Below are positions 1-43,576 of a stretch of 64,000 nt of DNA, in pieces. The DNA lies in NCBI GenBank assembly GCA_013202295.1, contig JABMRT010000101.1, positions 3,241 to 67,240 on the forward strand. The letters are read 5' to 3'. The translations under genes were made by a program, and so were the position numbers. The DNA is from Candidatus Zhuqueibacterota bacterium (GTDB taxonomy: Bacteria; Zhuqueibacterota; QNDG01; JABMRT01). The notes beneath the pieces were generated by a model. It did not search any database. It saw only the letters and a list, made by a program, of their open reading frames with translations, and was not told the origin of the DNA. Each line of letters opens with the position of its first letter. The stretch's first letter is position 1.

Positions 1-392
1 GGCACACAAATCATGGACCGGGTACGAAAGCTGGATTTCTTATCATAAGCAGAATCAAATCGAGGGTCTTGATAGCAATCTTCAATCAGCAGAGATTCAC
101 GATGTTCAGCCACCCAGCCGGCTATCCCTGTGCCCATTTCTACCGTGAAGGTTTCCATGAGCTTGCCCTTCTCACCCGTGGCCACTTGAAAATGGAGTTT
201 GCCGTCTTTTTCATCATAGAGTAAAAGAGAACTGGCCTCGGCGCCCATCAGCTCCTTGCTGCTCTCCATAATTTCATGCATGAGTTCGGGAAGCGGCTTT
301 TTTTCTGAAATCTTTTGGGAAATCGCATGGAGAAATTGCAAGTTTTCATTCACCGATTGAAGCGATTGTACATCAGAATTCCGATCTGCCAT
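1..392 (-). CDS. GAF domain protein, N-terminal part only (continues beyond window start)
   Basis: Minus-strand translation from ATG at 392: MADRNSDVQSLQSVNENLQFLHAISQKISEKKPLPELMHEIMESSKELMGAEASSLLLYDEKDGKLHFQVATGEKGKLMETFTVEMGTGIAGWVAEH..., typical GAF fold signature; not in ORF track because truncated by window edge. Confidence 0.55.
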   Translation of the reverse strand, partial: MADRNSDVQSLQSVNENLQFLHAISQKISEKKPLPELMHEIMESSKELMGAEASSLLLYDEKDGKLHFQVATGEKGKLMETFTVEMGTGIAGWVAEHRESLLIEDCYQDPRFDSAYDKKSSFRTRSMICV

Positions 393-429
393 GACAGAAT
401 TCCTTTACGTTAGGATTATAAAAGCCGCA

Positions 430-1716
430 TCATGCAGCCCTTAATTTGAACCGGAAAAATCCAAAAATAAAACCAATGATGCCAACCAGAAAATTATAGA
501 TATCTCGAACACGGAAATAAAACTTATTGGCCAAAGAGATGCGCTTCTCTGCCACACCCATTTGAGGAGGCTGTACCCGAGGCACCCAGCCATAGGTTCC
601 CCGATCGATCAGCACCTTGTTCCAGATCCACTCCCCGCGATAGGCCACATCTGTGAGCAGGAGCAGCATCCCTCTGGGAACGGAGCGGATAACTGGAGCC
701 TTTTCTGAGGGTTGCTCTCGTATCGATGCCTGGGTATCCTTGATTTCCACAAACAGATGGTTGGATGCGTGCAAGGTCACATCCGATTTCAAACCCACAT
801 CCAGAGAGAGCCAGACCGTGGGTGCGAAAAACAGGATAAAGCTCAGGCAAAATCCGACACCTCCGCTCAGTATGCGGAATACAACCATAGGCACAAACTT
901 GCTGCGAATGATTAGAAAAACAACGCCTATCAGGAGCAATCCGAGAAGAACAGCAACCAGCGGATAATTCATCACCAGATGTTTGGGATTTAAAAGAATA
1001 AGCGCCAATGCTTCGGAATCAGCCAGAAAGTAACGTATATATCGAAAATAGAGAAAAACAAGCATGCATCCGTTGACCAGTCCTGCGCCAAGAATCTCCC
1101 ATTTCTGGATCGGTCCCAGTCTCAACATCGCAGGTCCGTCGTCCGGGAGCACTTCACTTGCCTTCTGCCAGACACATTTGTACAGCGTCATGGGATTTTT
1201 CTTACCCCTGGGTGTAAACCGTCCTTTTTTTTCCAAGTGATAGGATTTTTGATTTAGTTTCCGAATGGCACGCGCAGATATTAATATTTCATTCGCATTA
1301 GCTTTGTCCTCAATACGCGAAGCCACATTGACTGTGTCACCATAAATATCCCCTTTTTCAACCACAGCCCGGCCTGAATGAATGCCGATGCAAATTTTCG
1401 GGATTTTAGGATCGGACTTTCTCTCATGCTGCAATGCCTGCTGAATGGCAATGGACGCGTGCAATGCGTGAGTCGGTGATTTAAACGATGCCATCACCGA
1501 ATCACCAATGGTTTTGACAATCCTTCCATTATTTTTCTGAATAATTGGAAAGATCATCCGATTGAGAAAGTCAATCATCAGGCGGCCCATGACATCACCC
1601 CGTGAATCCCAGTACGTGCTGGAAGCAACCACATCGGTAAACAGAATCGTGACCTCTTTCTCAGTCACTTTGATATAACGCTGAATATTCTTGAAAAGTC
1701 GTTTCTGTGAAGGCAT
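430..1716 (-). CDS. Class III adenylate/guanylate cyclase with N-terminal catalytic domain followed by multi-pass membrane region
   Basis: ILFTDVVASSTYWD and KTIGDSVMASF metal-binding Asp motifs, GDTVNVASRIE; residues ~215-300 strongly hydrophobic (4-6 TM helices) plus final hydrophobic helix. Confidence 0.8.
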   Translation of the reverse strand: MPSQKRLFKNIQRYIKVTEKEVTILFTDVVASSTYWDSRGDVMGRLMIDFLNRMIFPIIQKNNGRIVKTIGDSVMASFKSPTHALHASIAIQQALQHERKSDPKIPKICIGIHSGRAVVEKGDIYGDTVNVASRIEDKANANEILISARAIRKLNQKSYHLEKKGRFTPRGKKNPMTLYKCVWQKASEVLPDDGPAMLRLGPIQKWEILGAGLVNGCMLVFLYFRYIRYFLADSEALALILLNPKHLVMNYPLVAVLLGLLLIGVVFLIIRSKFVPMVVFRILSGGVGFCLSFILFFAPTVWLSLDVGLKSDVTLHASNHLFVEIKDTQASIREQPSEKAPVIRSVPRGMLLLLTDVAYRGEWIWNKVLIDRGTYGWVPRVQPPQMGVAEKRISLANKFYFRVRDIYNFLVGIIGFIFGFFRFKLRAA

Positions 1717-1801
1717 GCGAATCCTTTAATCTATGATAGCAGATATGATGAAATACTGTACCTCAACGATATTCCCCCAACATTCTTTCTTTATTACAAA
1801 A

Positions 1802-3562
1802 TTACAAAGCAAAAGCAAGTCGCTTGACATTCAATAGATTTTTGTATGTAACATTATCTGTTGTGGATGTCCCACCCAGCGTGCCGCATCCCAATGTCAA
1901 CGAAGGCAGTAATCCATTGCCACCTCCGATACACCCCAAAGATCCACCGACATTTGTCAGGATCCGGCTGGCCGGCATCAGAGCCGCGTACCGCTTGGCC
2001 AGATCCTGATCGTGGGTATGAATAATAGCTGTATGACCGCTTCCCTCCTGTGTCAGAATATCTTTACAAAGTTTAAACGCTTCCTCTTCATTTTTGACCG
2101 TGAACAGAGAAAGCACAGGTGCTAATTTTTCATGCCCAAAGGGCCCGGTGTACTGCTCATTCTCTAAAGGAAGAATCAAAAGCCGCATCGTATCGTCCAC
2201 AGCAATCCCTGCTTTTTCTGCAATCGCCTGAGCCGAATGGCCCACCATAAATGCATTGAATCGATGCATGTCGGAATCATACATTTCTTCAAGTAGGAGT
2301 TCCATCTCATCTTGATTGAGTATTCGAGCACCATGTTTTTTCAGTGCTGTCAGGAATGCATCATGCACTGAAGCATCGACGACAAGATTGTTTTCTGAGC
2401 CGCAGATGACACCATTATCAAAACTTTTACTGGAAATATTCATCTCAGCAGTTTTTTCAATATCCGCATCTTGGGCGATGTATACCGGCGCATTGCCTGC
2501 ACCGACGCCAATCGCCGGTGTACCGGAACTATAAGCTGCCCTCACTATACTGGGGCCGCCGGTAGCCAGGATAAAAGACATATCCGGGTGACGCATGAAC
2601 ATGTTGGTTAATTTGCGGCTAGAACGTTCTCGAATCCATTGAATCAGGTGGACAGGTGCATGATGTTTCTTCAACACATCCTGAAGGATTTCACCGGTCT
2701 TGTTCCCCACAATCATGGCTTTACGATGACAGCTCATAATCAATGCATTGCGTGATTTCAAGCAAATAAGTGCTTTGAATATCATCGTGGGCACAGGATT
2801 GGTCAAGGGAATAATTCCCATAATAACACCCATTGGGCTGGCAATTTCTTCGATTCGATCGGCCTGATTATATTGAATCATCCCGTATGCCGGTTTCCCC
2901 GCCAATACATCATAGACACCCTGACTAGCAAATCGGATTTTTGCTACTTTATCAGCCATCACACCCAGTCCGCTTTCCTCAACCGTATCCGCGGCCAGTT
3001 CATCCGCATGGGTCACAATCGCATCTACCATATCATTGAGCAAGGCATCCACTTTATCTTCCGGCCAGTCTTGAAAGGTTGTTTGGGCCGCGTGCGCATT
3101 CTCAATCATCGAATCGACAAAGGGGGTTGATACTTCCATTGAGATAAAATCTGCCAGCTGCTTGTTCGCCTGTCTCACAATTTGAATGAGATTAGCAGAA
3201 AATGTTTTCAGTAATTGCGTGCCGATTTTCGGATGATTCGCCAACAAGGTCTCAAATTTCTCGAGCGAGAGCCAACGGGCAGTTACATCTGTATGGGCAT
3301 ACAAACTGGCTGAACGCGGCTCATGATCGATCAGCGAAAAATCGCCCATCACCATGCCGGGCTCCAGATAATTCAGCACGACATCTGTATCAAGCTCGCC
3401 TGTATCGTATTCGACACGCACCGTGCCTTCGTCAATAAAGTAACATCCATTCCCTTCACCACCTTGCTCCATAATACAGGTTCCTGTTGAGAATGTGACG
3501 GTTTCAAGGCTGTTATTGACAATGGCCATGTCATCTTCATTCAAAGCATTTAATAAAGTCAT
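1802..3562 (-). CDS. Fusion protein: N-terminal cyclic-nucleotide-binding (CAP-type) domain + CoA-acylating aldehyde dehydrogenase (EutE/PduP/AdhE-N-like)
   Basis: N-term GMVMGDFSLIDHEPRSASLYA cNMP-binding signature; C-term ALDH fold with GGPSIVRAAYSSGTPAIGVGAGNAPVYI and catalytic Cys context SFDNGVICGSENNLVVD. Confidence 0.75.
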   Translation of the reverse strand: MTLLNALNEDDMAIVNNSLETVTFSTGTCIMEQGGEGNGCYFIDEGTVRVEYDTGELDTDVVLNYLEPGMVMGDFSLIDHEPRSASLYAHTDVTARWLSLEKFETLLANHPKIGTQLLKTFSANLIQIVRQANKQLADFISMEVSTPFVDSMIENAHAAQTTFQDWPEDKVDALLNDMVDAIVTHADELAADTVEESGLGVMADKVAKIRFASQGVYDVLAGKPAYGMIQYNQADRIEEIASPMGVIMGIIPLTNPVPTMIFKALICLKSRNALIMSCHRKAMIVGNKTGEILQDVLKKHHAPVHLIQWIRERSSRKLTNMFMRHPDMSFILATGGPSIVRAAYSSGTPAIGVGAGNAPVYIAQDADIEKTAEMNISSKSFDNGVICGSENNLVVDASVHDAFLTALKKHGARILNQDEMELLLEEMYDSDMHRFNAFMVGHSAQAIAEKAGIAVDDTMRLLILPLENEQYTGPFGHEKLAPVLSLFTVKNEEEAFKLCKDILTQEGSGHTAIIHTHDQDLAKRYAALMPASRILTNVGGSLGCIGGGNGLLPSLTLGCGTLGGTSTTDNVTYKNLLNVKRLAFAL

Positions 3563-3602
3563 CTATTTGATCTCCATGATTAATAATAACTGATCAGGAT
3601 AA

Positions 3603-3640
3603 GTGTTTGTGTTCCAACGCGGAGCATGGGAACGAGGAAT
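3603..3640. repeat. Degenerate copy of short palindromic (REP-like) element found 3' of GH2 genes
   Basis: aagtgtttgtgttccaacgcggagcatgggaacgaggaa matches aagtgtttcgttccaacgcagagcattggaacgaggaa at 6461-6499 and 6783-6821. Confidence 0.5.
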
Positions 3641-3649
3641 CACAAACAA

Positions 3650-5461
3650 TTAATATTCATTCCGAACACTATCAAAATATTGTTTCATTACAATCCATGC
3701 CTTCTTTTTATCACCCTGATCAGAAAGTAATCCTTTCCGGTTCCATCCACTCTGATATTTGGGGTGCATTCGGCCCAAAGACCGGTAATCCACCAATAAC
3801 CAGGGACAGATACCAACCAGATTCGGCACATTTTCAAACATGGCAATCTGATCTATGTAAATCTGCTCCTGATATTCCTCGTTCCAATGTGCGGCCTCAT
3901 CAGGAGGGCCCTCATGATTTCCGTACAGTGCTTCCCCTCCGAATTCAGAAATAAGGACCGGTTTGTCCTCACATACCAGTTTCCATTTCGTTTCGGTTGG
4001 ATTACCCTGCCATGGCACATACCATCCTAAGTATTCATTCAGCGCAATGAAATCGCAATGATTATACAGAGTATCCCACACATTGAAAGTATGATTCTCA
4101 TACCCCTGCGTATTGATCACATGCGTGATAAGTCGCGTGGAGTCCAGCTCTCTGCACTGCTTCGTCAATGTGATCAGGGCCTGATTGCGATTGGGTGTAA
4201 AATGATACGTTTCGTTCGAAAGACTCCAGATTACAACACCGCAGCGATTTCGGTCCCGTTTGACCATCTCCCTGAGCATCAAGTCCATCTTTTGCTCAAT
4301 GCCAGGAGCTGAAAATGAAATATGCTGGTATATGGGAAGTTCGCTCCAGACCATCAAGCCCATCTTCTCGGCCATCCGGACCGTGTATTCATTGTGAGGA
4401 TAATGCGCCAGACGCACGAAATTGCAACCGAGTTCTTTTACCCAGCTGAGTAGTACCAACGCGTCGGACTTTGAAAAGGCCTTGGCCGCCCGAAGCGGCA
4501 TCTCCTCATGTAAATTAACACCCTTTAGAAATATCGGCTTCCCGTTCAGAACAATGTCCGGGCCCCGGATGTCAATGGTTCTAAATCCGATCTCATCCGC
4601 GAGTGTATCGGTTTCGCTTTCAATGATCACGTTGTACAGTTTCGGATGATCAGGCCACCATAGCTCTGGATGCGCTTCAAATTCGATTTCAGCAAATCCA
4701 CGATCATTCGATTGTGTTTTATATTGGATATGCAATTCTGGAATTCTGACCGTAATGGGCTGCACGGATTGGGCTCCGTCCAATTTCACCCAGCCCCTAA
4801 TCATCCCTTTGGAACTTTTATGTAATTGAATCGAATAGTCTTCGATATAAGATACCGGTGTTTCAATCAAATTGACATCGCGGGTAATGCCCCCATAATT
4901 GAACCAGTCATACCCTAGACCGGGCAGCCCGTCCTTAAATCGATGATTGTCCACCTTAACCACAATCCGGTTTTGGCCGGGCTTCACCTTATCAGTAATC
5001 TCAAACTGAAACGGGGTGAAACCGCCCTCATGCTGGCCAAGCGGTTCGCCGTTGAGATAGATATTCGCCAGATAATTCACAGCACCAAAATGGAGGAAGA
5101 GTCTTTTGTGTTTTTTTATTTCATGGTGGAATGTCTTTTTATACCAGACCGTGCCTTCCATATAGGTCAGTTCGGGGAGCTGTGTATTAAAATCACCCGG
5201 TACGTTTAAAACAGGGCCGCCGTCAAATGAATACTCCACAAAATCGGTTTTTTTCTCAGGTTGCTTTTCCTGCCATACCTGACGCCAGTTTCCGGTTCCG
5301 GTTGGATCAAGAATCACTTGCCACTTGCCGTTTAATGAGGTTGATTGTCGTGCAAATACATTGATCATCGAAGACTGTGCGAGGACAGCATGCTCAAAGC
5401 CTGAACCAATGAACAAAAATAGAATAGTGATTTGGATGAAATGATAAACACTGCTACACAT
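3650..5461 (-). CDS. Glycoside hydrolase family 2 (beta-galactosidase/beta-glucuronidase-like), secreted
   Basis: GH2 sugar-binding, Ig-like and TIM-barrel motifs (NHRFKDGLPGLGYDWFNYGGITRDVNL; VIWSLSNE acid/base); probable true start at internal Met 5461 giving signal peptide MCSSVYHFIQITILFLFIGSGFEHAVLAQS. Confidence 0.85.
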   Translation of the reverse strand: MCSSVYHFIQITILFLFIGSGFEHAVLAQSSMINVFARQSTSLNGKWQVILDPTGTGNWRQVWQEKQPEKKTDFVEYSFDGGPVLNVPGDFNTQLPELTYMEGTVWYKKTFHHEIKKHKRLFLHFGAVNYLANIYLNGEPLGQHEGGFTPFQFEITDKVKPGQNRIVVKVDNHRFKDGLPGLGYDWFNYGGITRDVNLIETPVSYIEDYSIQLHKSSKGMIRGWVKLDGAQSVQPITVRIPELHIQYKTQSNDRGFAEIEFEAHPELWWPDHPKLYNVIIESETDTLADEIGFRTIDIRGPDIVLNGKPIFLKGVNLHEEMPLRAAKAFSKSDALVLLSWVKELGCNFVRLAHYPHNEYTVRMAEKMGLMVWSELPIYQHISFSAPGIEQKMDLMLREMVKRDRNRCGVVIWSLSNETYHFTPNRNQALITLTKQCRELDSTRLITHVINTQGYENHTFNVWDTLYNHCDFIALNEYLGWYVPWQGNPTETKWKLVCEDKPVLISEFGGEALYGNHEGPPDEAAHWNEEYQEQIYIDQIAMFENVPNLVGICPWLLVDYRSLGRMHPKYQSGWNRKGLLSDQGDKKKAWIVMKQYFDSVRNEY

Positions 5462-5525
5462 TGCTGTTTCCCTTTTTCTTTCTCTTTTTATCACACCCGG
5501 ACTCAGTATGAAAATGATAAATACG

Positions 5526-5930
5526 CTACGCCTGCCGTATTTTTGAATTGAGATTATACCCCTTTTCGCCAAATGGCTGAAGCTTCTCAAGCCAGATTTC
5601 TTCGAGTAAAGTCAGTTCATCTTTCAAATTGAAGTTCTCGTCGTCTTTCACCTCTACAACTTCGAGTATTTCGAAGACAAACTTGTCTTCACCGAACTCA
5701 TCCCATTCCTGCTGAAGTGCTTCATTGCGATGACTTCCCATTGTGAGCATAAACTTATCTCTGTTCAACGGGCCCTTAAGGTTCAAACTGCTTCCGAGCA
5801 GCACCTTGCCGTTTGCCGTATTCTTGACCTGAAACACACCCGCCGGTTTCTTTCGTTCTTTATATTCTCTATTGATGTTCTGTCTTGATTTCATCACCGT
5901 CTCTATATTCATTTTGCCGTTCCAAAACAA
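5526..5930 (-). CDS. GIY-YIG nuclease-superfamily small protein
   Basis: GVFQVKNTANGKVLLGSSLNLKGPLNRDKFML matches GIY-YIG core (GxYxIxNxxNGKxYIGSSxNL...R); exact start uncertain (several in-frame Met). Confidence 0.55.
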   Translation of the reverse strand: MFWNGKMNIETVMKSRQNINREYKERKKPAGVFQVKNTANGKVLLGSSLNLKGPLNRDKFMLTMGSHRNEALQQEWDEFGEDKFVFEILEVVEVKDDENFNLKDELTLLEEIWLEKLQPFGEKGYNLNSKIRQA

Positions 5931-6000
5931 AATTTGGGAACCATGTAATAACCTTTTATCCCTGCACCACTGAATAAAAACCCTGAGGCGATCATGACTC

Positions 6001-6423
6001 TCAAATTAAATCCCATTTTTTCTCTACCCTTGTGATCTCATCTAGAACTCGTATTCTTAATGTGTCCCTACCGATAGGGCTTTGCCCGTAGATTGTTGGT
6101 CCATTCACCTTATGGTCATTATATGATTCAGGATTAAGCTCTTTCTTTATTGCTTCTGATAGATACGGCTTCATTTGTGAAAACATTATTGTCTCTGAAA
6201 AATCATTCCAGTTTGTCCCCTTATTGAAATCATCTATGGATATCATTTGGCGCAACGAATCAATAAATTCTCTCCTCATCGCCCTTGTGTCTTTCCTTTT
6301 TTCAATACCCCAATGAATCCATGGTGCAATTAAGGAGGCGACAGTTCCTGAAACCAAACCAAAAAATGATGGGAGAACGACAGTTAACCACAATGATGAG
6401 TCAGTCATAACAGAGCCTTTCAT
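6001..6423 (-). CDS. Hypothetical membrane-anchored protein
   Basis: ORF with N-terminal TM helix (SLWLTVVLPSFFGLVSGTVASLIAPWIHW); ORF-track start extends into palindromic repeat, likely real start MKGSVM at 6423. Confidence 0.45.
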   Translation of the reverse strand: MKGSVMTDSSLWLTVVLPSFFGLVSGTVASLIAPWIHWGIEKRKDTRAMRREFIDSLRQMISIDDFNKGTNWNDFSETIMFSQMKPYLSEAIKKELNPESYNDHKVNGPTIYGQSPIGRDTLRIRVLDEITRVEKKWDLI

Positions 6424-6432
6424 TTTTTCATC

Positions 6433-6517
6433 TCGTTCCCACGCTCTGCGTGGGAATGGCAAGTGTTTCGTTCCAACGCAGAGCATTGGAACGAGGAAAT
6501 TCCCTTTTCCCTGTTCC
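6433..6517. repeat. Palindromic REP-like element copy 1 (two adjacent hairpins)
   Basis: tcgttcccacgc-tct-gcgtgggaa (9-bp stem) then cgttccaa-cgcagagca-ttggaacg (8-bp stem), followed by ggaaattcccttttccctgttc; identical copy at 6756-6840. Confidence 0.7.
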
Positions 6518-6525
6518 CCATTCCC

Positions 6526-6750
6526 CTATTCCCCAGGTTTCAAAATCATCCCTGCCGGAATCGGCTGCCTCATAAATCCCGGCCCTTCAAATTCAACAGA
6601 GAAGGATTCTCCACCTCCTTTTTCAAAAAAGACCACTTCAAAAGGTACCGGGTCCGCTCCCAGTTCAATCAAACCGCTTTGCGTTTCTGCGGCGTGAAGT
6701 CCGTCATTCTCCACAACCTTCTGCCCGTTTACAAACATGCGCGAGCCATT
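6526..6750 (-). pseudogene. Remnant PA14-domain fragment produced by tandem duplication of the 3' end of the downstream GH2 gene
   Basis: [73 protein letters not shown] vs C-terminus of 6863..10924 product (...[73 protein letters not shown]); no plausible start, upstream part of ORF reads through hairpin repeat. Confidence 0.7.
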
Positions 6751-6755
6751 CATCT

Positions 6756-6840
6756 CGTTCCCACGCTCTGCGTGGGAATGGCAAGTGTTTCGTTCCAACG
6801 CAGAGCATTGGAACGAGGAAATTCCCTTTTCCCTGTTCAC
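6756..6840. repeat. Palindromic REP-like element copy 2, immediately 3' of GH2/LacZ-like gene
   Basis: Same two-hairpin sequence as 6433-6517, 323 bp apart. Confidence 0.7.
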
Positions 6841-6862
6841 CTTTTCCCCGTTCACCCTTCCC

Positions 6863-10957
<4,095 letters not shown>

Positions 10958-22367: not shown

Positions 22368-24335
22368 TTATTCCTCGACCTCTGGAAATAAATTATACAG
22401 ATTCAATATCCAGGTGTAAGCATTAAATCTATGTATTACTGCTCCGTTAAGCGCTGGGAAGTTTAATGGAATAACATCTGTGTGTATCGGTTGAGAGATC
22501 GTGAAGGGGGGATCATCAGGATCAGGAGGATAAAATGTCCAACTGCTTGTAGTCCAGCATTCTTCGATCCACTCAATATCCAGCCAGAAATCTCCCTGAT
22601 AGTCATTTGTCAGTTCCCCACTTAAGGTAATTGTATTGGTTCCAAAACCAATAATAGATGCCCCACCTGCCTGGCCGGTTACTGTGACATCGGAAACGCC
22701 GTGACCTGTTAAATGGCCGAATTCCTCAGTACCGATAAATGGAATAATACCATTCACAATCCATCTATCGTAATAATAGGGCGGCGCCTCATGCACAATA
22801 TCATGTTGACATACAATGTCACCCTGAATGCCGCATCGATTAAATATCTCACCAACACGGGCGGAATACTGTGAGACAAGATCTCCATACACCAAAAAAG
22901 AAAAAACAAGTTCACTGAATTTAGTCAAAGCATTCTTGTACCATCCGCACGGATTTTCAGGAACAGGCTGGTTAATAAAATTGCTTGCATCCCTTTCGAT
23001 AATTTCCCTCACTTTATCGAGTATCGCTTGAGCTTCCGCATCTCTGCCTAGTCCTTGAAGCATGTCCGCCCATCTTATCATTGCTTCAACCACATCATAT
23101 GTGCCCTGCCAATCAAAGGGATTTAAAGCACCCCCTTCCGCCGCTTTACCAGCCTGGTCAATTGCTTCATTCCCCGACGGATCTCCTGCGGAATAATCGC
23201 TAAAATGATAAATATCTCCCTCTATTGAGGAATCTGTAACTGCTATTTTCCCCAGCGGCAGCACAAAATCGGATTGTTTAATATAGAACAACGTTGATAA
23301 ATTTGTGTCCACATCGGTTGCGGCAAAAGTCACTTTTAAAGAGGCTGGTCGATGCGGTCTGAATCCTCCGGGAGAGATATTTACTCCGGGAAATATATTA
23401 TTGTGAATTGGATTGTTGGGCTGTGTATCAAATGTGGATAGTGTGATCGTCGTAGGTTCCCACAGTGCATATCGTGGAATAGTCAGTGTGATGGAGTCAT
23501 TACGGCTGTTCGCGACCGTAATGATTCCGCCTGTTGTGTCAAGAGTGACAATGCTCTGATTCCCTATCTGAACCAAAGAAAAATTGGTTTCATTATTGAT
23601 ACCCTGAATAAGTTTTCTTGAACGTTCCATACAGGCATATCCGGTTTTTTCTATCTTAAAAAGCACTTCAAGGGTATCGCCAGCTTCCTTGATAAGGCGC
23701 ACATCTGGTTCACTACTTTTAAATGTCTGTCCTGGATTCCCAAATATCTGATTTAGCGAGAGCTTAAGAAAGCTGCCTGAAGTGAGCATCAACTTTCTTG
23801 ATTCTGATACATAGCCATTATTAAATCTCAGTCTGCAAATATAAATGCCACTGGTAAGAAATCCGTGATGATTGACTTTCCTGCCGAGGATATTATACAT
23901 CTCAAGAATGGGAGTTTCCAGCTCATTGTCAGGAACCTGGTACTGAATGGTTAAAGTTTCATTGTTTTCCGGCGTTACTGGATTGGGATGGAATTCACTC
24001 ATCAAATAAGATGAAGGTGCTGCTGAGGGTCGAGTGCGGACACTTGTGAAGTTTAAATTAACTGTTGCATCATATGAGCCGCTTCCATCTGTATATATAT
24101 CCGTATAGAGCACATCACCAGTGACAGGATTCAGCAAGGAAATTTTCGCATTGTCAATTGCAGCTAGTGTTGAGACATCAGTAATGATACCGCTAATTTG
24201 ACAAGCTGACATTGTTTTTAAATCAGATGAAGGCGACCCATAAATATTACCTGTGTAGCTTGTTAATGGTAATATTGATAACACAATAAGAAATAGTATA
24301 CTATTTCGAGGATTAAAGATGTTTAGCCTTAACAC
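22368..24335 (-). CDS. Hypothetical secreted protein with N-proximal CarbopepD_reg-like segment and an internal T9SS-sorting-domain-like (FlgD-Ig) module
   Basis: Signal peptide; residues ~105-185 EFHPNPVTPENNETLTIQYQVP...EMYNILGRKV...GIYICRLRF resemble the C-terminal sorting domain but sit near the N-terminus. Confidence 0.5.
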   Translation of the reverse strand: MLRLNIFNPRNSILFLIVLSILPLTSYTGNIYGSPSSDLKTMSACQISGIITDVSTLAAIDNAKISLLNPVTGDVLYTDIYTDGSGSYDATVNLNFTSVRTRPSAAPSSYLMSEFHPNPVTPENNETLTIQYQVPDNELETPILEMYNILGRKVNHHGFLTSGIYICRLRFNNGYVSESRKLMLTSGSFLKLSLNQIFGNPGQTFKSSEPDVRLIKEAGDTLEVLFKIEKTGYACMERSRKLIQGINNETNFSLVQIGNQSIVTLDTTGGIITVANSRNDSITLTIPRYALWEPTTITLSTFDTQPNNPIHNNIFPGVNISPGGFRPHRPASLKVTFAATDVDTNLSTLFYIKQSDFVLPLGKIAVTDSSIEGDIYHFSDYSAGDPSGNEAIDQAGKAAEGGALNPFDWQGTYDVVEAMIRWADMLQGLGRDAEAQAILDKVREIIERDASNFINQPVPENPCGWYKNALTKFSELVFSFLVYGDLVSQYSARVGEIFNRCGIQGDIVCQHDIVHEAPPYYYDRWIVNGIIPFIGTEEFGHLTGHGVSDVTVTGQAGGASIIGFGTNTITLSGELTNDYQGDFWLDIEWIEECWTTSSWTFYPPDPDDPPFTISQPIHTDVIPLNFPALNGAVIHRFNAYTWILNLYNLFPEVEE

Positions 24336-26196: not shown

Positions 26197-26851
26197 TCGG
26201 AGAAAACAATTGAATTGTGACGGATTTAAAAAGTGGCAGCTTGGCAAATGGCCGGATGAGAAATTTCAGGACCATGTGAAAGATTGCTCCGTTTGCGCAG
26301 AAGCAGAAAGACAGGATCGCGAGCTTCTGGACATGGCCCGTTCCCTGAAACAGGATGTGAACACGCCCTGGCTCTGGACCCTGATTGAATCGGCAATCAA
26401 ACAGGATGTGAAACAGAAAGAAACCCAAATTTTGCGAAGCGGATGGTGGACGCGTCCCGCCTTTCGCATGGCTGCGGTGCTTGTTCTGGGTGTCGGACTG
26501 GGACTGATCCTGCGGTCAGGACTCCTGCCGTCTCAATCCGGCATTCTGGCCAACTCCGCGCTCAAACGCGTGGAAGCATCCGAGCAAGCGTATGAATCTG
26601 CGATTTCGGATCTTGAAACCGAAGCCGGTACACAGCTCACGGAAATGGATATTGAACTCATGCTGCTCTATCGTGATCGATTGGAAACCATTGACGATCA
26701 AATCGAAGAGTGTAAAACCGAACTCACGCGAAATCCGGCGAACGCGCACATCCGGCATTATCTGCTGGCCGCGCTGAAGGACAAGAAAGAAACCCTGAAT
26801 GAAATTATTGACTGGGCGCCTCACACCGATCCAGCAGAGAGCGTCTCATAA
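26189..26851 (+). CDS. Anti-sigma factor, single-pass membrane (Zn-finger-like N-term)
   Basis: 8-bp overlap with sigma gene; HVKDCSVCAE motif; TM AAVLVLGVGLGLIL. Confidence 0.6.
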   Translation: MTNRRKQLNCDGFKKWQLGKWPDEKFQDHVKDCSVCAEAERQDRELLDMARSLKQDVNTPWLWTLIESAIKQDVKQKETQILRSGWWTRPAFRMAAVLVLGVGLGLILRSGLLPSQSGILANSALKRVEASEQAYESAISDLETEAGTQLTEMDIELMLLYRDRLETIDDQIEECKTELTRNPANAHIRHYLLAALKDKKETLNEIIDWAPHTDPAESVS

Positions 26852-26864
26852 ATTGGAGGCACAC

Positions 26865-28526
26865 ATGCAATCCTTAAATCACATTCGAATGAAACAGCAA
26901 ATCCTGACGACCATCCTTTTTATCATTGGGGTCACCGTATTACACGCCGAGGATGTCTCTGGGAAAAGGACCTTTGAAGAAGAGATTCCGGCAAGATCCG
27001 GGGGGACCCTGATCATTGAAGAGTCTCGTGGCGACCTGAGAATCGAGGGCACGGATGACAATAAAGTCTCCGTGCGTGCGTTTCTCGGCGTAAAAAATTC
27101 GTCCGATGATATAGTGGAAAAGTATATGGAATATACCTCTCTTGAACTGGAGGAAACCTCTGAAGGCGTACGTCTCTCGTTTCGCACACCAGAGGATGTG
27201 GAGGACGGCTCTCTGATCGAAGTTTTTTCAAAGCAACTCAGGAATCTGATGAAAGCAGGCAAATGGCGGATCTCTGTAGAACGCCGAATGACAGTTAAGT
27301 TGCCGAAGAATCATAACCTCGAGGTGCACAATAAATACGGTGATGTGTGGATCAGATACGTAAACGGTGAGCTGGAAATCGAAAACCAGTCCGGAGAGGT
27401 GAAAATTGCAGATTGCGGCGGTAATCTGGATCTGAAAAACAGCTACGCGGCCGTGAGTGTAGAGGATTTCAAAGGTACAGTGAAAATCAGAGTATCTAGC
27501 GGGGAAGTGAATCTCAATCGCATTCAGGGCAGCGTGGATATTGAAAACAGTTATCGGCCAGTCACAATTAATCAGATTGGCGGAAATTGCATCATTCAGT
27601 CGTCCAGCGCGGAAGTCAAAGGTCGCAGAATTAACGGCGATTGCTATATCCGTTCTTCATACAAACCGATATATATATCAGATGTTCAGGGCAATCTGGA
27701 TGTCAATGGTTCAAGCGCTGAAGTCACGGCCCTGCGCGTAGCCGGTCGCGTGGAAATCGAATCCAGCTACAAAGATATTAAGGTGGATAGCGTGGGCCAG
27801 AATTTAATTATCAAGGGCAGCTCAGCACCCGTGACTGCCTCAAGAATAAATGGACCTGTTTCTATCCGCACATCCTATAAGCCCATCAAAGTTACGGATG
27901 TCAACGGCTCACTTGATGTGGACGGTTCTTCCTGTTCCGTGGAAGCCATAGGCATCAAGGGTGATGCCACGATTCAGGCTACGTATAAAGAAATTACATT
28001 AAAGGACATAAGCGGACGTGTGGAAGTGCACGGTTCATCAGCACCGGTCACTGCCGTGAATATCGGGGAGTCGGCTGTGATTCACTCCTCCTACAAACCA
28101 ATTCAGGTAAGGGATATCAAAGGCGATCTGAAAGTGGAAGGAAGTTCATGCAGTGTGTCCGTGGAGAATATCGGCGGCGACCTGGAAATCACAAATTCGT
28201 ATAAATACGTGATTGTGAAAGGCACCTCCGGATCGATTCAGGTGAATAGCAGCTCAGGCCCTATTGAAGTTACTGGAGTAAAACATATTCCGGAGAATGG
28301 CAGGATTGAGATTATCACTACTTACAAACCCATCACCCTGACATTGCCCAAGGGATTGAACGCATCCATTGACGCAAAAACGAAATATGGCACGATTGAA
28401 TACAATTTGTCGGGAAGCCGGCGAGGAACAAGCCAAAAGGACCGGCTCGCCATAAGTCTCGGATCAGGCGACATTCCAATTTACCTGAAGACGGATAAAG
28501 ACATCACGATTAGTGAAAATAAGTAA
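26865..28526 (+). CDS. DUF4097/DUF4098-type repeat adhesin-like beta-helix protein
   Basis: RBS ggagg then MQSLNH; ~15 tandem ~23-aa repeats (SSYKPIxVxDIxGxLxVxGSSAxV); sigma/anti-sigma/DUF4097 gene order. Confidence 0.75.
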   Translation: MQSLNHIRMKQQILTTILFIIGVTVLHAEDVSGKRTFEEEIPARSGGTLIIEESRGDLRIEGTDDNKVSVRAFLGVKNSSDDIVEKYMEYTSLELEETSEGVRLSFRTPEDVEDGSLIEVFSKQLRNLMKAGKWRISVERRMTVKLPKNHNLEVHNKYGDVWIRYVNGELEIENQSGEVKIADCGGNLDLKNSYAAVSVEDFKGTVKIRVSSGEVNLNRIQGSVDIENSYRPVTINQIGGNCIIQSSSAEVKGRRINGDCYIRSSYKPIYISDVQGNLDVNGSSAEVTALRVAGRVEIESSYKDIKVDSVGQNLIIKGSSAPVTASRINGPVSIRTSYKPIKVTDVNGSLDVDGSSCSVEAIGIKGDATIQATYKEITLKDISGRVEVHGSSAPVTAVNIGESAVIHSSYKPIQVRDIKGDLKVEGSSCSVSVENIGGDLEITNSYKYVIVKGTSGSIQVNSSSGPIEVTGVKHIPENGRIEIITTYKPITLTLPKGLNASIDAKTKYGTIEYNLSGSRRGTSQKDRLAISLGSGDIPIYLKTDKDITISENK

Positions 28527-42319: not shown

Positions 42320-43576
42320 TTATCTTGATGGGGATATTTCATAAAAATGTTTTATATGCGTATAGAGAGCGGTTTCCTCATATCCCTCAACCTCAAGAAG
42401 CATTTCGAAATATGGGGGAACAGAACCATTGAGTGCTGTTATTTCCTCATACAATCGGTTGAGTGATGAATTTTCAATAATCTTTTTTATCACCTCCATC
42501 CGACCAATTTGGTGGAATGAGACGACAAAAAGACAAATATTGTCTTGGGGACCAGGTACCAAGGAAAATATAACATAATCTTTAGTATATTTATTTTCAT
42601 TTGATCCAGGATGGATAAATGTATAAGTAGTATCAATTTCATTGTTATAAAAACGAATTTGTCTCAATGAAGATTTTGGAATAGCTGCCGTATACTCTTT
42701 AAAATGTAAAGCTGGAAATATTTCATTCATATTATTTAAATTGTGAAAATGCCCAATATAAATGACATTGTAATTTTTTAAATCTTCCCACTCAATTTCG
42801 TCAGAGGTTTTCCAATAAAATGGCTTCGAATTTATAGTAAAAATCGGCTGAATTCTTGACAGATTCCATAAGCTCGACTTGGGAAGGATGTCCCAGTCAG
42901 ATTCTATATAATTTTCATTATCAAGAGCATATCGACCAATGAACGCTTCAAGATCATCTAAAGATCCAATTTTGTCATCTCTGACAAGCCGGAAACTATT
43001 TAATTCTTCTTGGTATTCATTAAATGCATATAAATTTCCAAATGTTAGAATGGTTGGGAACTCACTTGTCAGAAAATCGGACCATATGAAACTGGATTCA
43101 TTCACAGAGTTCTTAGAAACGATTGTCTTTATTATTGTTTTATTGGTATACCACAGATAAAATATCAGAATAAGAAAAATAAGGATGGTAAAAACAAAGA
43201 ATCGTATTAACAGTGTTGTTTTCCTCCCCTCATTTTCCTCCCTATTACTCTTTGAAGCTGATTCAAAAACGACATGATAGTGCCCCTTGGGAATCGTCAG
43301 TTGTATCTTGTCATTTTTACCTTCCTCTTTATAATACTCTTCTAATTTTTTCCTTAGCTTATAAATATGTACACGAACCAAGGTGTCTTCGAATGGATCA
43401 AATGTATCATCTTTGTCCAATGCCTGAATTGCTATATCAATTTCATTAGGTAATTTCCCCTTCAAGGAACATTCAACCAAATAAGTAAGAATCTTTTTAT
43501 ATGTCTCACTTTTAGCAAACGATGGACTGAGTAATATACTCTTAAGTACACTTTGTTGTATATTTCTTTTAATCAT
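42320..43576 (-). CDS. ToxR/CadC-like membrane-anchored transcriptional regulator (N-terminal OmpR/PhoB-type winged helix, one TM, ~250-aa periplasmic domain); low-GC gene
   Basis: YKKILTYLVECSLKGKLPNEIDIAIQALDKDDTFDPFEDTLVRVHIYKLRKKLEEYY resembles trans_reg_C; TM LLIRFFVFTILIFLILIFYLWY. Confidence 0.6.
   Translation of the reverse strand: MIKRNIQQSVLKSILLSPSFAKSETYKKILTYLVECSLKGKLPNEIDIAIQALDKDDTFDPFEDTLVRVHIYKLRKKLEEYYKEEGKNDKIQLTIPKGHYHVVFESASKSNREENEGRKTTLLIRFFVFTILIFLILIFYLWYTNKTIIKTIVSKNSVNESSFIWSDFLTSEFPTILTFGNLYAFNEYQEELNSFRLVRDDKIGSLDDLEAFIGRYALDNENYIESDWDILPKSSLWNLSRIQPIFTINSKPFYWKTSDEIEWEDLKNYNVIYIGHFHNLNNMNEIFPALHFKEYTAAIPKSSLRQIRFYNNEIDTTYTFIHPGSNENKYTKDYVIFSLVPGPQDNICLFVVSFHQIGRMEVIKKIIENSSLNRLYEEITALNGSVPPYFEMLLEVEGYEETALYTHIKHFYEISPSR

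Follow-up and report, generated by a model that had tools for sequence, protein, structure and literature searches.

A fusion of a cyclic-nucleotide-binding domain and a CoA-acylating aldehyde dehydrogenase that is widespread in bacteria, and its possible control by cAMP

Can a bacterial cyclic nucleotide act directly on an enzyme that interconverts aldehydes and acyl-CoA? The question is raised by a gene in a 64,000-nucleotide stretch of DNA (referred to here as the window) from a Candidatus Zhuqueibacterota bacterium, contig JABMRT010000101.1, in which a cyclic-nucleotide-binding (cNMP-binding) domain is joined to a coenzyme A (CoA)-acylating aldehyde dehydrogenase (ALDH), and which lies next to a gene for a nucleotidyl cyclase. 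To our knowledge few enzymes are under direct regulation by cyclic AMP (cAMP), the mycobacterial protein acetyltransferase Pat being the textbook case, and for most of the many class III cyclases of non-enteric bacteria the output is not known. We found that the fusion gene is intact and real, with both domains on one chain, and that it belongs to a family present in about a dozen phyla. We lean towards the view that cAMP allosterically controls the interconversion of acyl-CoA and aldehyde by this enzyme.

An intact gene encodes both domains on one chain

The open reading frame (ORF) is uninterrupted, encodes 586 amino acids and starts with ATG, with GGAG placed 8 nt 5' of the start (Table 1). 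Its product is identical to NQT25277.1, a protein from a metagenome-assembled genome (MAG) of candidate division KSB1 that is annotated as 'aldehyde dehydrogenase family protein'. Both halves score above the curated Pfam cutoffs: residues 22-110 match cNMP_binding (PF00027; 53.5 bits against a cutoff of 27.5, E = 2.4e-14, profile positions 2-89 of 89), and residues 148-538 match Aldedh (PF00171; 96.3 bits against a cutoff of 23). The original prediction, made without database searches, had proposed a complete cNMP-binding module and an acylating ALDH in one 586-residue polypeptide, and the profile searches bear this out; the N-terminal segment does score as cNMP-binding.

Could the fusion be an artefact, produced by a frameshift or by the assembly of two genes into one? 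At a few loci (L077, L018, L081 and L033) the two halves are separate or broken, all of them in fragmentary low-coverage MAGs (the L077 contig has 1.2x coverage). The junction, at residues 110-150, is continuous in the window protein and aligns without gaps in 191 distinct full-length homologues that share the same architecture of about 586 residues, are collinear, and come from independent assemblies and from cultured isolates. We therefore ruled out a chimera, to which we give practically no credence, and take the fusion to be one gene, as had been predicted.

The family is large. By searching 5.8 billion proteins we found at least 120 clusters of homologues at 49-85% identity, all of them 573-619 residues long and all with both PF00027 and PF00171. 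In a genome scan limited to one genome per species we confirmed 114 matches and retained 79 loci, which are spread over Planctomycetota, Chloroflexota, Spirochaetota, Verrucomicrobiota, Bacteroidota, Thermodesulfobacteriota, Armatimonadota, Gemmatimonadota, Cyanobacteria, Actinomycetota and Gammaproteobacteria. Among the carriers are cultured bacteria, namely eight Nocardioides strains or species, Pseudonocardia sp. TRM90224 and Reinekea sp. G2M2-21.

The earlier description of this architecture as non-standard stands in one sense and not in another. We found no paper on the ALDH fusion, nor on the operon of ALDH, patatin and NDH-2 genes described below, in the full-text literature searched, which excluded most subscription journals, and an ALDH output is not among the 30 families in the classification of cNMP-binding domains by Kannan et al. 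2007 (PMC2246266). The architecture is not rare, however: it is widespread in public genomes under the name 'aldehyde dehydrogenase family protein'. An enzyme fused to a cNMP-binding domain is a known design; the version with an ALDH output, for which we found no study, is visible in databases as deposited and automatically annotated entries.

Two variants of the family were seen in passing. An Armatimonadetes MAG has two paralogous copies of the fusion in tandem (L032, 8056-9849 and 9962-11773). At another locus (L082, 9968-12316) a cNMP-binding domain that belongs to this subfamily and shares 43% identity with the N-terminus of the window protein is joined to a Ser/Thr protein kinase and to a domain resembling 3-keto-disaccharide hydrolase (Pfam), and the same N-terminal match is found in a 728-residue ORF at L084 (9968-12154).

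What kind of ligand does the N-terminal half resemble a receptor for? By comparison with sequences in the PDB it aligns to PKA regulatory subunits, PKG, and CRP/GlxR, and it matches the NCBIfam model for Pat (E = 3e-11). When residues 1-147 were used as a phmmer query against the whole library, eukaryote-like proteins that have several to many cNMP-binding domains took up most of the top of the E-value ranking, which gave no clean estimate of the size of the family. Within cNMP-binding domains generally, the cassette residues Gly-Glu...Arg-[ST/A]-Ala touch the ribose 2'-OH and the cyclic phosphate. The cassette of the window protein, G73-D-F-S-L-I-D-H-E-P-R83-S-A-S86, matches that of PKA RI (GELALIYGTPRAAT) position for position, with G73-D74...R83-S84-A85 aligned with G-E...R-A-A. 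These ligand-contacting positions are kept in 87-98% of the 191 family members: Gly in 188, Arg in 175, Ser in 166 and Ala in 173, while position 74 is Glu in 171 and Asp, as in the window protein, in 13. The consensus cassette of the family is GEFSLLDxxPRSAS. A cassette of this RSAS type does not discriminate cAMP from cGMP.

A second conserved element of the sensor is specific to the family. It is an acidic motif, E-x-D-[TS]-[DE], in the 'flap' loop between strands beta4 and beta5 (E56 is kept in 171 of 191 members, D58 in 165, and D or E at position 60 in 182), and its conservation makes it a candidate surface for contact between the two domains. The AlphaFold2 model of the fusion (mean pLDDT 84, pTM 0.73) shows a barrel of beta strands (residues 20-99), two helices (100-109 and 111-140) and, beyond these, the ALDH fold. 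Most of the barrel has a pLDDT of 75-91; the linker at 137-143 is of low confidence, and both linker and flap fall below 50 in the monomer.

The catalytic half belongs with the acylating enzymes. Its NCBIfam scores are 464 bits for the N-terminal half of AdhE, 434 for EutH-type acetaldehyde dehydrogenase, 305 for SauS and 220 for the EutE/PduP subfamily, and acylating enzymes rank far above every hydrolytic ALDH. Its best solved relatives by sequence are the acetylating ALDH of Geobacillus thermoglucosidasius (5j78, E = 1e-98 over residues 148-585), the Listeria enzyme 3k9d, the ALDH domains of AdhE spirosomes, and SucD of Clostridium kluyveri; E-values for this set run from 1e-98 to 3e-72, whereas those of hydrolytic ALDHs are no better than 1e-13. 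Foldseek comparison of the ALDH half to 5j78/5j7i gave TM-scores of 0.88-0.89 at 40% identity, and found no solved structure that unites cNMP-binding and ALDH domains. The match to the AdhE model PRK13805 is limited to model positions 15-450 of 872, and neither Pfam nor NCBIfam detected a C-terminal Fe-ADH domain, so the protein is not a bifunctional AdhE.

The catalytic cysteine is intact, as the original prediction had it: in alignments Cys387 pairs with the Cys in the FDYGTICASEQ motif of 5j78 and with that of 3k9d, and it is kept in 190 of the 191 members (99.5%), as are Thr334 of the LATGG motif in 191 and His510 in 189. Hydrolytic ALDHs are marked by a general-base Glu in an ELGG motif, and LATGG at that place is an acylating signature. 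In the window protein LATGGP (residues 332-337) occupies the place of the ELGG motif and aligns with ILATGGP of 5j78. From these motifs the ALDH half is predicted to be catalytically competent, and its reaction would be acyl-CoA + NADH <-> aldehyde + CoA + NAD+, most likely with acetyl-CoA and acetaldehyde as the pair. Because the cassette residues and the catalytic Cys are kept together in the 191 members, both functions are under joint selection.

Table 1. Features of the fusion gene and its flanks in the window.
Feature	Position	Strand	Basis
Whole fusion gene, cNMP-binding domain + acylating aldehyde dehydrogenase	1802..3562	-	ORF list, Pfam, 100% match to database protein
cNMP-binding (CAP/PKA-type) beta-barrel domain, aa 22-110	3233..3499	-	PF00027, alignments, AlphaFold2
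Family-specific acidic motif E-x-D-[TS]-[DE], aa 56-60 (ELDTD), beta4-beta5 flap loop	3383..3397	-	Conservation
Phosphate-binding cassette, aa 73-86 (GDFSLIDHEPRSAS)	3305..3346	-	Alignment to PKA RI cassette; family conservation
Long C-helix (aa 111-140) and short flexible linker (aa ~137-146), sensor to enzyme	3125..3232	-	AlphaFold2 secondary structure and pLDDT
CoA-acylating aldehyde dehydrogenase domain, aa 148-586	1805..3121	-	PF00171, NCBIfam, 5j78, Foldseek
Codon of catalytic Cys387 (FDNGVICGSENN)	2402..2404	-	Alignment to Cys motif of 5j78 and 3k9d
Upstream intergenic region, 87 bp, GH2 gene to fusion gene; palindromic repeat 3610-3633 and likely ribosome-binding site	3563..3649	-	Sequence, repeat search
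Spacer, 85 bp, fusion gene to cyclase gene; no terminator-like hairpin	1717..1801	-	Sequence, terminator scan
Class III nucleotidyl cyclase, 428 aa	430..1716	-	PF00211
5' part of GAF-domain gene, 130 codons, cut by window end	1..392	-	PF01590, E 4.5e-8

Cyclases and other cNMP-binding enzymes near the fusion genes

If the sensor binds a cyclic nucleotide, where could the messenger come from? The original prediction placed a nucleotidyl cyclase and a GAF gene directly downstream of the fusion gene on the same strand, and this layout is correct: the cyclase gene follows after 85 bp, and the GAF ORF starts 37 bp downstream of the cyclase gene and runs off the end of the window. The Guanylate_cyc domain of the cyclase (PF00211, residues ~19-177) scores 77 bits against a Pfam cutoff of 21.9, and among solved structures it is closest to those of the adenylyl cyclase Ma1120 and to 3mr7. 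Class III cyclases have two metal-binding Asp residues and an Asn/Arg pair that acts in the transition state, and a Lys/Asp pair specifies ATP as substrate. We could read the motifs FTDV, VKTIGDS, GDIYGDTVNVASR, GDIYGD and TVNVASR, in which both metal Asp (FTD and IGD), the Lys of VKTIGD, the Asp of GDIYGD, and the Asn and Arg of TVNVASR are retained. Since the Lys/Asp pair specifies ATP, the gene product is probably an adenylyl cyclase. Its layout is unusual, with the catalytic domain at the very N-terminus and, after it, several hydrophobic segments (identified by eye), an SH3b-like domain and a final hydrophobic tail; the match of residues 330-379 to SH3_3 is weak (20 bits) and below the cutoff.

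To see the cyclase in the context of the family, we called ORFs at 80 non-redundant fusion loci and searched them with iterated profiles. Many of the contigs are short, so the counts that follow are lower bounds. A class III cyclase domain is present in 21 of the 80 loci, in every case no more than 4.1 kb from the fusion gene (in 573 kb of DNA), and there are none in the zone from 4.1 to 10 kb around it (537 kb examined). The loci with cyclases belong to Chloroflexota, Actinomycetota, Verrucomicrobiota, Gammaproteobacteria and KSB1 and show about eight arrangements. The cyclase is downstream on the same strand in the window; a CHASE2-cyclase lies 50 bp upstream of the fusion in the Chloroflexi loci L007 and L012, and 147 bp upstream in L072; a convergent cyclase lies 245 bp away in L015 and L017; a 1320-residue double-cyclase/AAA/TPR protein is encoded 15 bp downstream in L063; and in the Nocardioides type (L048-L070) a convergent cyclase stands at the end of a three-gene operon. 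Because the arrangements differ, the linkage points to repeated selection rather than to one inherited layout.

The Nocardioides-type cyclases (L048-L070, at ~15.2-16.3 kb in most loci) have Asp in place of the substrate-defining Lys (EVDTAGD) and His-Arg in place of Asn (VGYDVHRAAR). Judging from these residues their product, and even their activity, is uncertain.

A second kind of neighbour also recurs. A cNMP-NTE_Ploop-patatin protein (~608 residues) is encoded at 28 of the 80 loci, a Pyr_redox_2/NDH2-cNMP protein (~552 residues) at 27, and both at 23. Altogether, 39 of the 80 loci have one or more genes of these kinds. The patatin and NDH-2 genes usually form a single operon with the fusion, in the order ALDH, patatin, NDH-2 on one strand. 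Three-enzyme operons of this kind are found at loci L036-L038, L040, L047-L050, L053-L055, L058, L060, L062, L064-L070, L073 and L074 (at ~10-16 kb in most), and in Nocardioides and related actinobacterial loci (L047-L070) the operon is closed by the convergent gene with a cyclase domain.

Several individual loci have further genes of related content. Directly 5' of the fusion and on the same strand, the Chloroflexi loci L007 (3855-7951) and L008 encode a 130-residue stand-alone cNMP-binding protein, an MBL-fold hydrolase, FecR and a CHASE2-cyclase; the hydrolase is similar to Anti-Pycsar Apyc1 and is a candidate cNMP phosphodiesterase, and genes for pyruvate/2-oxoacid:ferredoxin oxidoreductase and aldehyde:ferredoxin oxidoreductase are in the vicinity. 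A Luteolibacter MAG (L028, 8481-16233) has four more ORFs with cNMP-binding domains around the fusion, one of them a glutaminase-STAS-cNMP gene directly downstream. Three gammaproteobacterial MAGs (L071-L073, from uncultured Pseudohongiella, Poriferihabitaceae and Colwellia; ~9.9-20.5 kb) have genes for an MMPL transporter, a LolA-like protein and a 416-residue protein after the fusion, with a Lactamase_B_2 hydrolase, cNMP-patatin and NDH2-cNMP further downstream in L073; this gene set hints at a lipid-handling context.

The GAF gene of the window probably encodes a small stand-alone GAF protein, like its homologues, which are GAF-only proteins of 180-220 residues. Two of these homologues, in unrelated genomes (L090, 5136-11263, and L091, 5061-9116), are located directly after an MBL-fold Apyc1-like hydrolase, with a transposase separating this pair from one or two class III cyclase genes that lie within 3 kb. 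Because of these hydrolase and cyclase neighbours, the GAF gene too is tied to cyclic-nucleotide neighbourhoods.

There is no second cNMP-binding or cyclase gene elsewhere in the 64-kb window. The rest of it is devoted to polysaccharide degradation, with three GH2 genes, GH5, GH12 and GH28 enzymes, CE2 and AXE1 esterases, and CBM9, together with proteins carrying type IX secretion sorting domains, TonB-dependent receptors, a ROK kinase and YdjC. Five ORFs have no Pfam match (5526-5930, 6001-6486, 22368-24335, 26799-28526 and 42320-43576; 134, 161, 655, 575 and 418 residues). A 24-nt imperfect palindrome, GTTCC(C/A)ATGCTC(C/T)GCGTTGGAAC(A/G), occurs three times on the minus strand (3610-3633, 6469-6492 and 6791-6814), compared to none expected from shuffled sequences, and one copy is in the 87-bp spacer 5' of the fusion gene. 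Its possible roles are those of a REP-like element, of a terminator for the GH2 gene and of a binding site for a regulator. We also noticed a tandem duplication (6427-6856 and 6503-7084, spacing 322-337 bp, 80-94% identity) that copies the 3' end of the 1353-residue GH2/PA14 gene together with the palindrome and has left a 114-residue ORF (6526-6870) that repeats the PA14 C-terminus.

Possible control of the enzyme by cAMP

How might the two halves work together? On the reading that we favour, the adjacent class III adenylyl cyclase, anchored in the membrane, would make cAMP, which would bind to Gly73, Asp74, Arg83, Ser84 and Ala85 of the cassette. The long C-helix and the beta4-beta5 flap would then move, as happens in CRP, PKA, Epac and MtPat, and the shift would alter ALDH activity post-translationally. 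Judging from mycobacterial Pat, PKA and Epac, the most likely mode is relief of autoinhibition, that is, activation; the direction of regulation is the least secure part of this scheme. We infer that the ligand is cAMP and not cGMP, and likewise the allosteric coupling, its direction and the substrate. Such a switch could change flux at the node of acetyl-CoA, aldehyde and NADH within seconds and without transcription. In a fermentative degrader of polysaccharides it might gate acetyl-CoA between acetaldehyde (and on to ethanol), as a sink for NADH, and acetate, which yields ATP.

A number of observations weigh against this reading. The window cassette has Asp74 where the ribose-contacting Glu is usual, and some cNMP-type domains bind other ligands or none. 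The AlphaFold2 monomer model has no confident interface between sensor and enzyme. Co-transcription with the cyclase gene is no more than a possibility, no terminator-like hairpin having been seen between the two genes; scans of positions 1-6600 for promoters and terminators gave counts at or below the expectation from shuffled sequences. No cyclase was present in the DNA fetched for 59 of the 80 loci, the closest relatives of the window protein (76-85% identical; L088, L009 and L010) have none adjacent, and P0008, P0033 and P0038 are in unrelated housekeeping contexts. The NCBIfam equivalog cutoffs are not reached either (464 against 951 bits for AdhE PRK13805, 434 against 620 for TIGR02518 EutH_ACDH), and there is no partner alcohol dehydrogenase, microcompartment shell or eut/pdu gene in the window or among the recurrent neighbour clusters. 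Acetaldehyde-type enzymes give the highest scores, but because these are below the cutoffs and pathway neighbours are lacking, the substrate is not fixed.

The checkable parts of the original prediction all hold, and its idea of a local second-messenger circuit gains independent support from the linkage of cyclase and fusion in the 21 loci described above, over about eight arrangements. Adjacency is missing in the closest relatives of the window protein and in most loci, so the self-contained circuit is a lineage-specific arrangement.

Does the N-terminal domain then sense some other small molecule, or nothing at all, perhaps acting mainly as a module for ALDH dimerisation or as a scaffold? 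The cNMP-binding fold is known to sense other ligands, such as heme/CO (CooA), 2-oxoglutarate (NtcA) and nucleosides (trypanosome PKA). The CRP/FNR superfamily has many members that do not bind cNMPs (PMC2246266), and the loci without a nearby cyclase and the Asp in the cassette of the window protein would fit this alternative. However, non-cNMP members, with the motifs of NtcA, FNR, FixK and ArcR, typically lose the cassette Arg and the Gly-Glu (PMC2246266), which in our family are retained at the frequencies given above (175 and, for Gly, 188 of 191), and neighbouring genes for cyclases, cNMP-binding enzymes and MBL-fold hydrolases recur. We consider a different ligand, or none, unlikely.

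To a similar degree we doubt that a cyclic nucleotide is bound with a different outcome, namely the assembly of oligomers or filaments, localisation or the binding of a partner, or that the ligand is cGMP in place of cAMP. The ALDH half is closest to AdhE-type domains that build spirosomes (6ahc, 6tqh and 8uhw), the 30-residue helix of the sensor resembles the dimerisation helix of CRP, the RSAS cassette fits cAMP and cGMP alike, and cyclases beside other family members have non-canonical specificity residues, for example those of the Nocardioides type. Spirosome formation by AdhE requires its Fe-ADH domain, however, which the fusion does not have, and the cyclase in the window has the adenylyl Lys/Asp pair.

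Allosteric control by cAMP, our preferred reading, would gain a wider meaning from the recurrent operons. In Actinomycetota, Gemmatimonadota, Verrucomicrobiota and Gammaproteobacteria the ALDH could act jointly with the lipase and the NADH:quinone oxidoreductase on lipid-derived acyl-CoA and NADH. We tentatively propose, as a possibility that we hold with less confidence than control of the ALDH itself, that the cNMP-ALDH, the cNMP-NTE/patatin lipase and the NDH-2-cNMP NADH:quinone oxidoreductase form a set of cAMP-gated enzymes that spans phyla and is often in an operon with its own adenylyl cyclase. Such a set might switch lipid mobilisation, acetyl-CoA/aldehyde interconversion and NADH re-oxidation together, bypassing CRP and transcription, and KSB1 might have a reduced version (ALDH, cyclase and GAF) that gates the ethanol/acetate branch point of a polysaccharide fermenter.

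Should cAMP gate the ALDH, a second messenger would directly switch an enzyme of central carbon and redox metabolism in a dozen phyla, and this would suggest that ALDH, patatin lipase and NDH-2 make up a conserved three-enzyme cAMP module. The full enzyme set, if real, would be a bacterial counterpart of hormone-style control of metabolism by cAMP. Orthologues in cultured Nocardioides, Pseudonocardia and Reinekea make the hypothesis testable at the bench now. A ligand-switchable acylating ALDH would also be useful to metabolic engineers, because such ALDHs set the flux in engineered alcohol and acyl-CoA pathways.

Comparison with known systems

A cyclase that adjoins a protein with a cNMP-binding domain is also the layout of Pycsar, which raises the question of whether the pair in the window is an anti-phage system with the ALDH as its effector. 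The two-gene layout is Pycsar-like, PADLOC gives weak matches at the level of domains (41 bits for the N-terminus to the PycTIR effector, 39 bits for the cyclase to PycC), and one locus of the family (L003) is beside an island of restriction-modification and AIPR genes. The PADLOC matches are confined to shared domains, however, for which general Pfam models score higher. Pycsar has a TIR or transmembrane (membrane-disrupting) effector and the pyrimidine cyclase PycC, whereas here the output is a conserved metabolic enzyme, an ALDH, and the cyclase has purine (ATP)-type residues. Synteny is conserved within genera such as Nocardioides, most family members have no adjacent cyclase, and the remainder of the 64-kb window has carbohydrate-degradation genes in place of defence genes. 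On the grounds of domain content and distribution we rejected a Pycsar-like function, which we regard as highly improbable.

Compared to the acetylating ALDH ADA (5j78/5j7i), Listeria 3k9d and the N-terminal half of AdhE (6ahc, 6tqh and 8uhw), the catalytic half of the fusion has ~40% identity and a TM-score of 0.88 over residues 148-585, and it shares their catalytic Cys and their LATGG, GVGxGN and GHT motifs. The differences are that those enzymes have no cNMP-binding domain, that the fusion family has ICGSEN in place of their ICASEQ, and that the C-terminal Fe-ADH domain of AdhE is missing from the fusion.

Further known enzymes with cNMP-binding domains are PKA and PKG, Epac and NTE. The same design principle is seen in the NTE-like cNMP-patatin lipases, the 'Bact_Pyrredox' NDH-2 fusions (PMC2246266) and glutaminase-STAS-cNMP. 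These differ from the window protein in their catalytic domains, and in the NDH-2 and glutaminase proteins the sensor is C-terminal.

A close parallel is mycobacterial Pat (M. tuberculosis Rv0998, M. smegmatis MSMEG_5458; PDB 4AVC). Its output is a GNAT protein acetyltransferase, unlike the NAD-dependent ALDH of the fusion. Homology is confined to the sensor, and no counterpart of the regulatory lid and pseudo-substrate of Pat was identified in the fusion. What the two proteins share is an N-terminal cNMP-binding domain and a C-terminal enzyme that uses acyl-CoA, on one chain. If the proposed control of the ALDH holds, cAMP would in both cases act directly and post-translationally on acetyl-CoA metabolism. 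In MtPat and MsPat it is the N-terminal cNMP-binding domain that activates the C-terminal enzyme, with cAMP relieving autoinhibition (PMC8556138).

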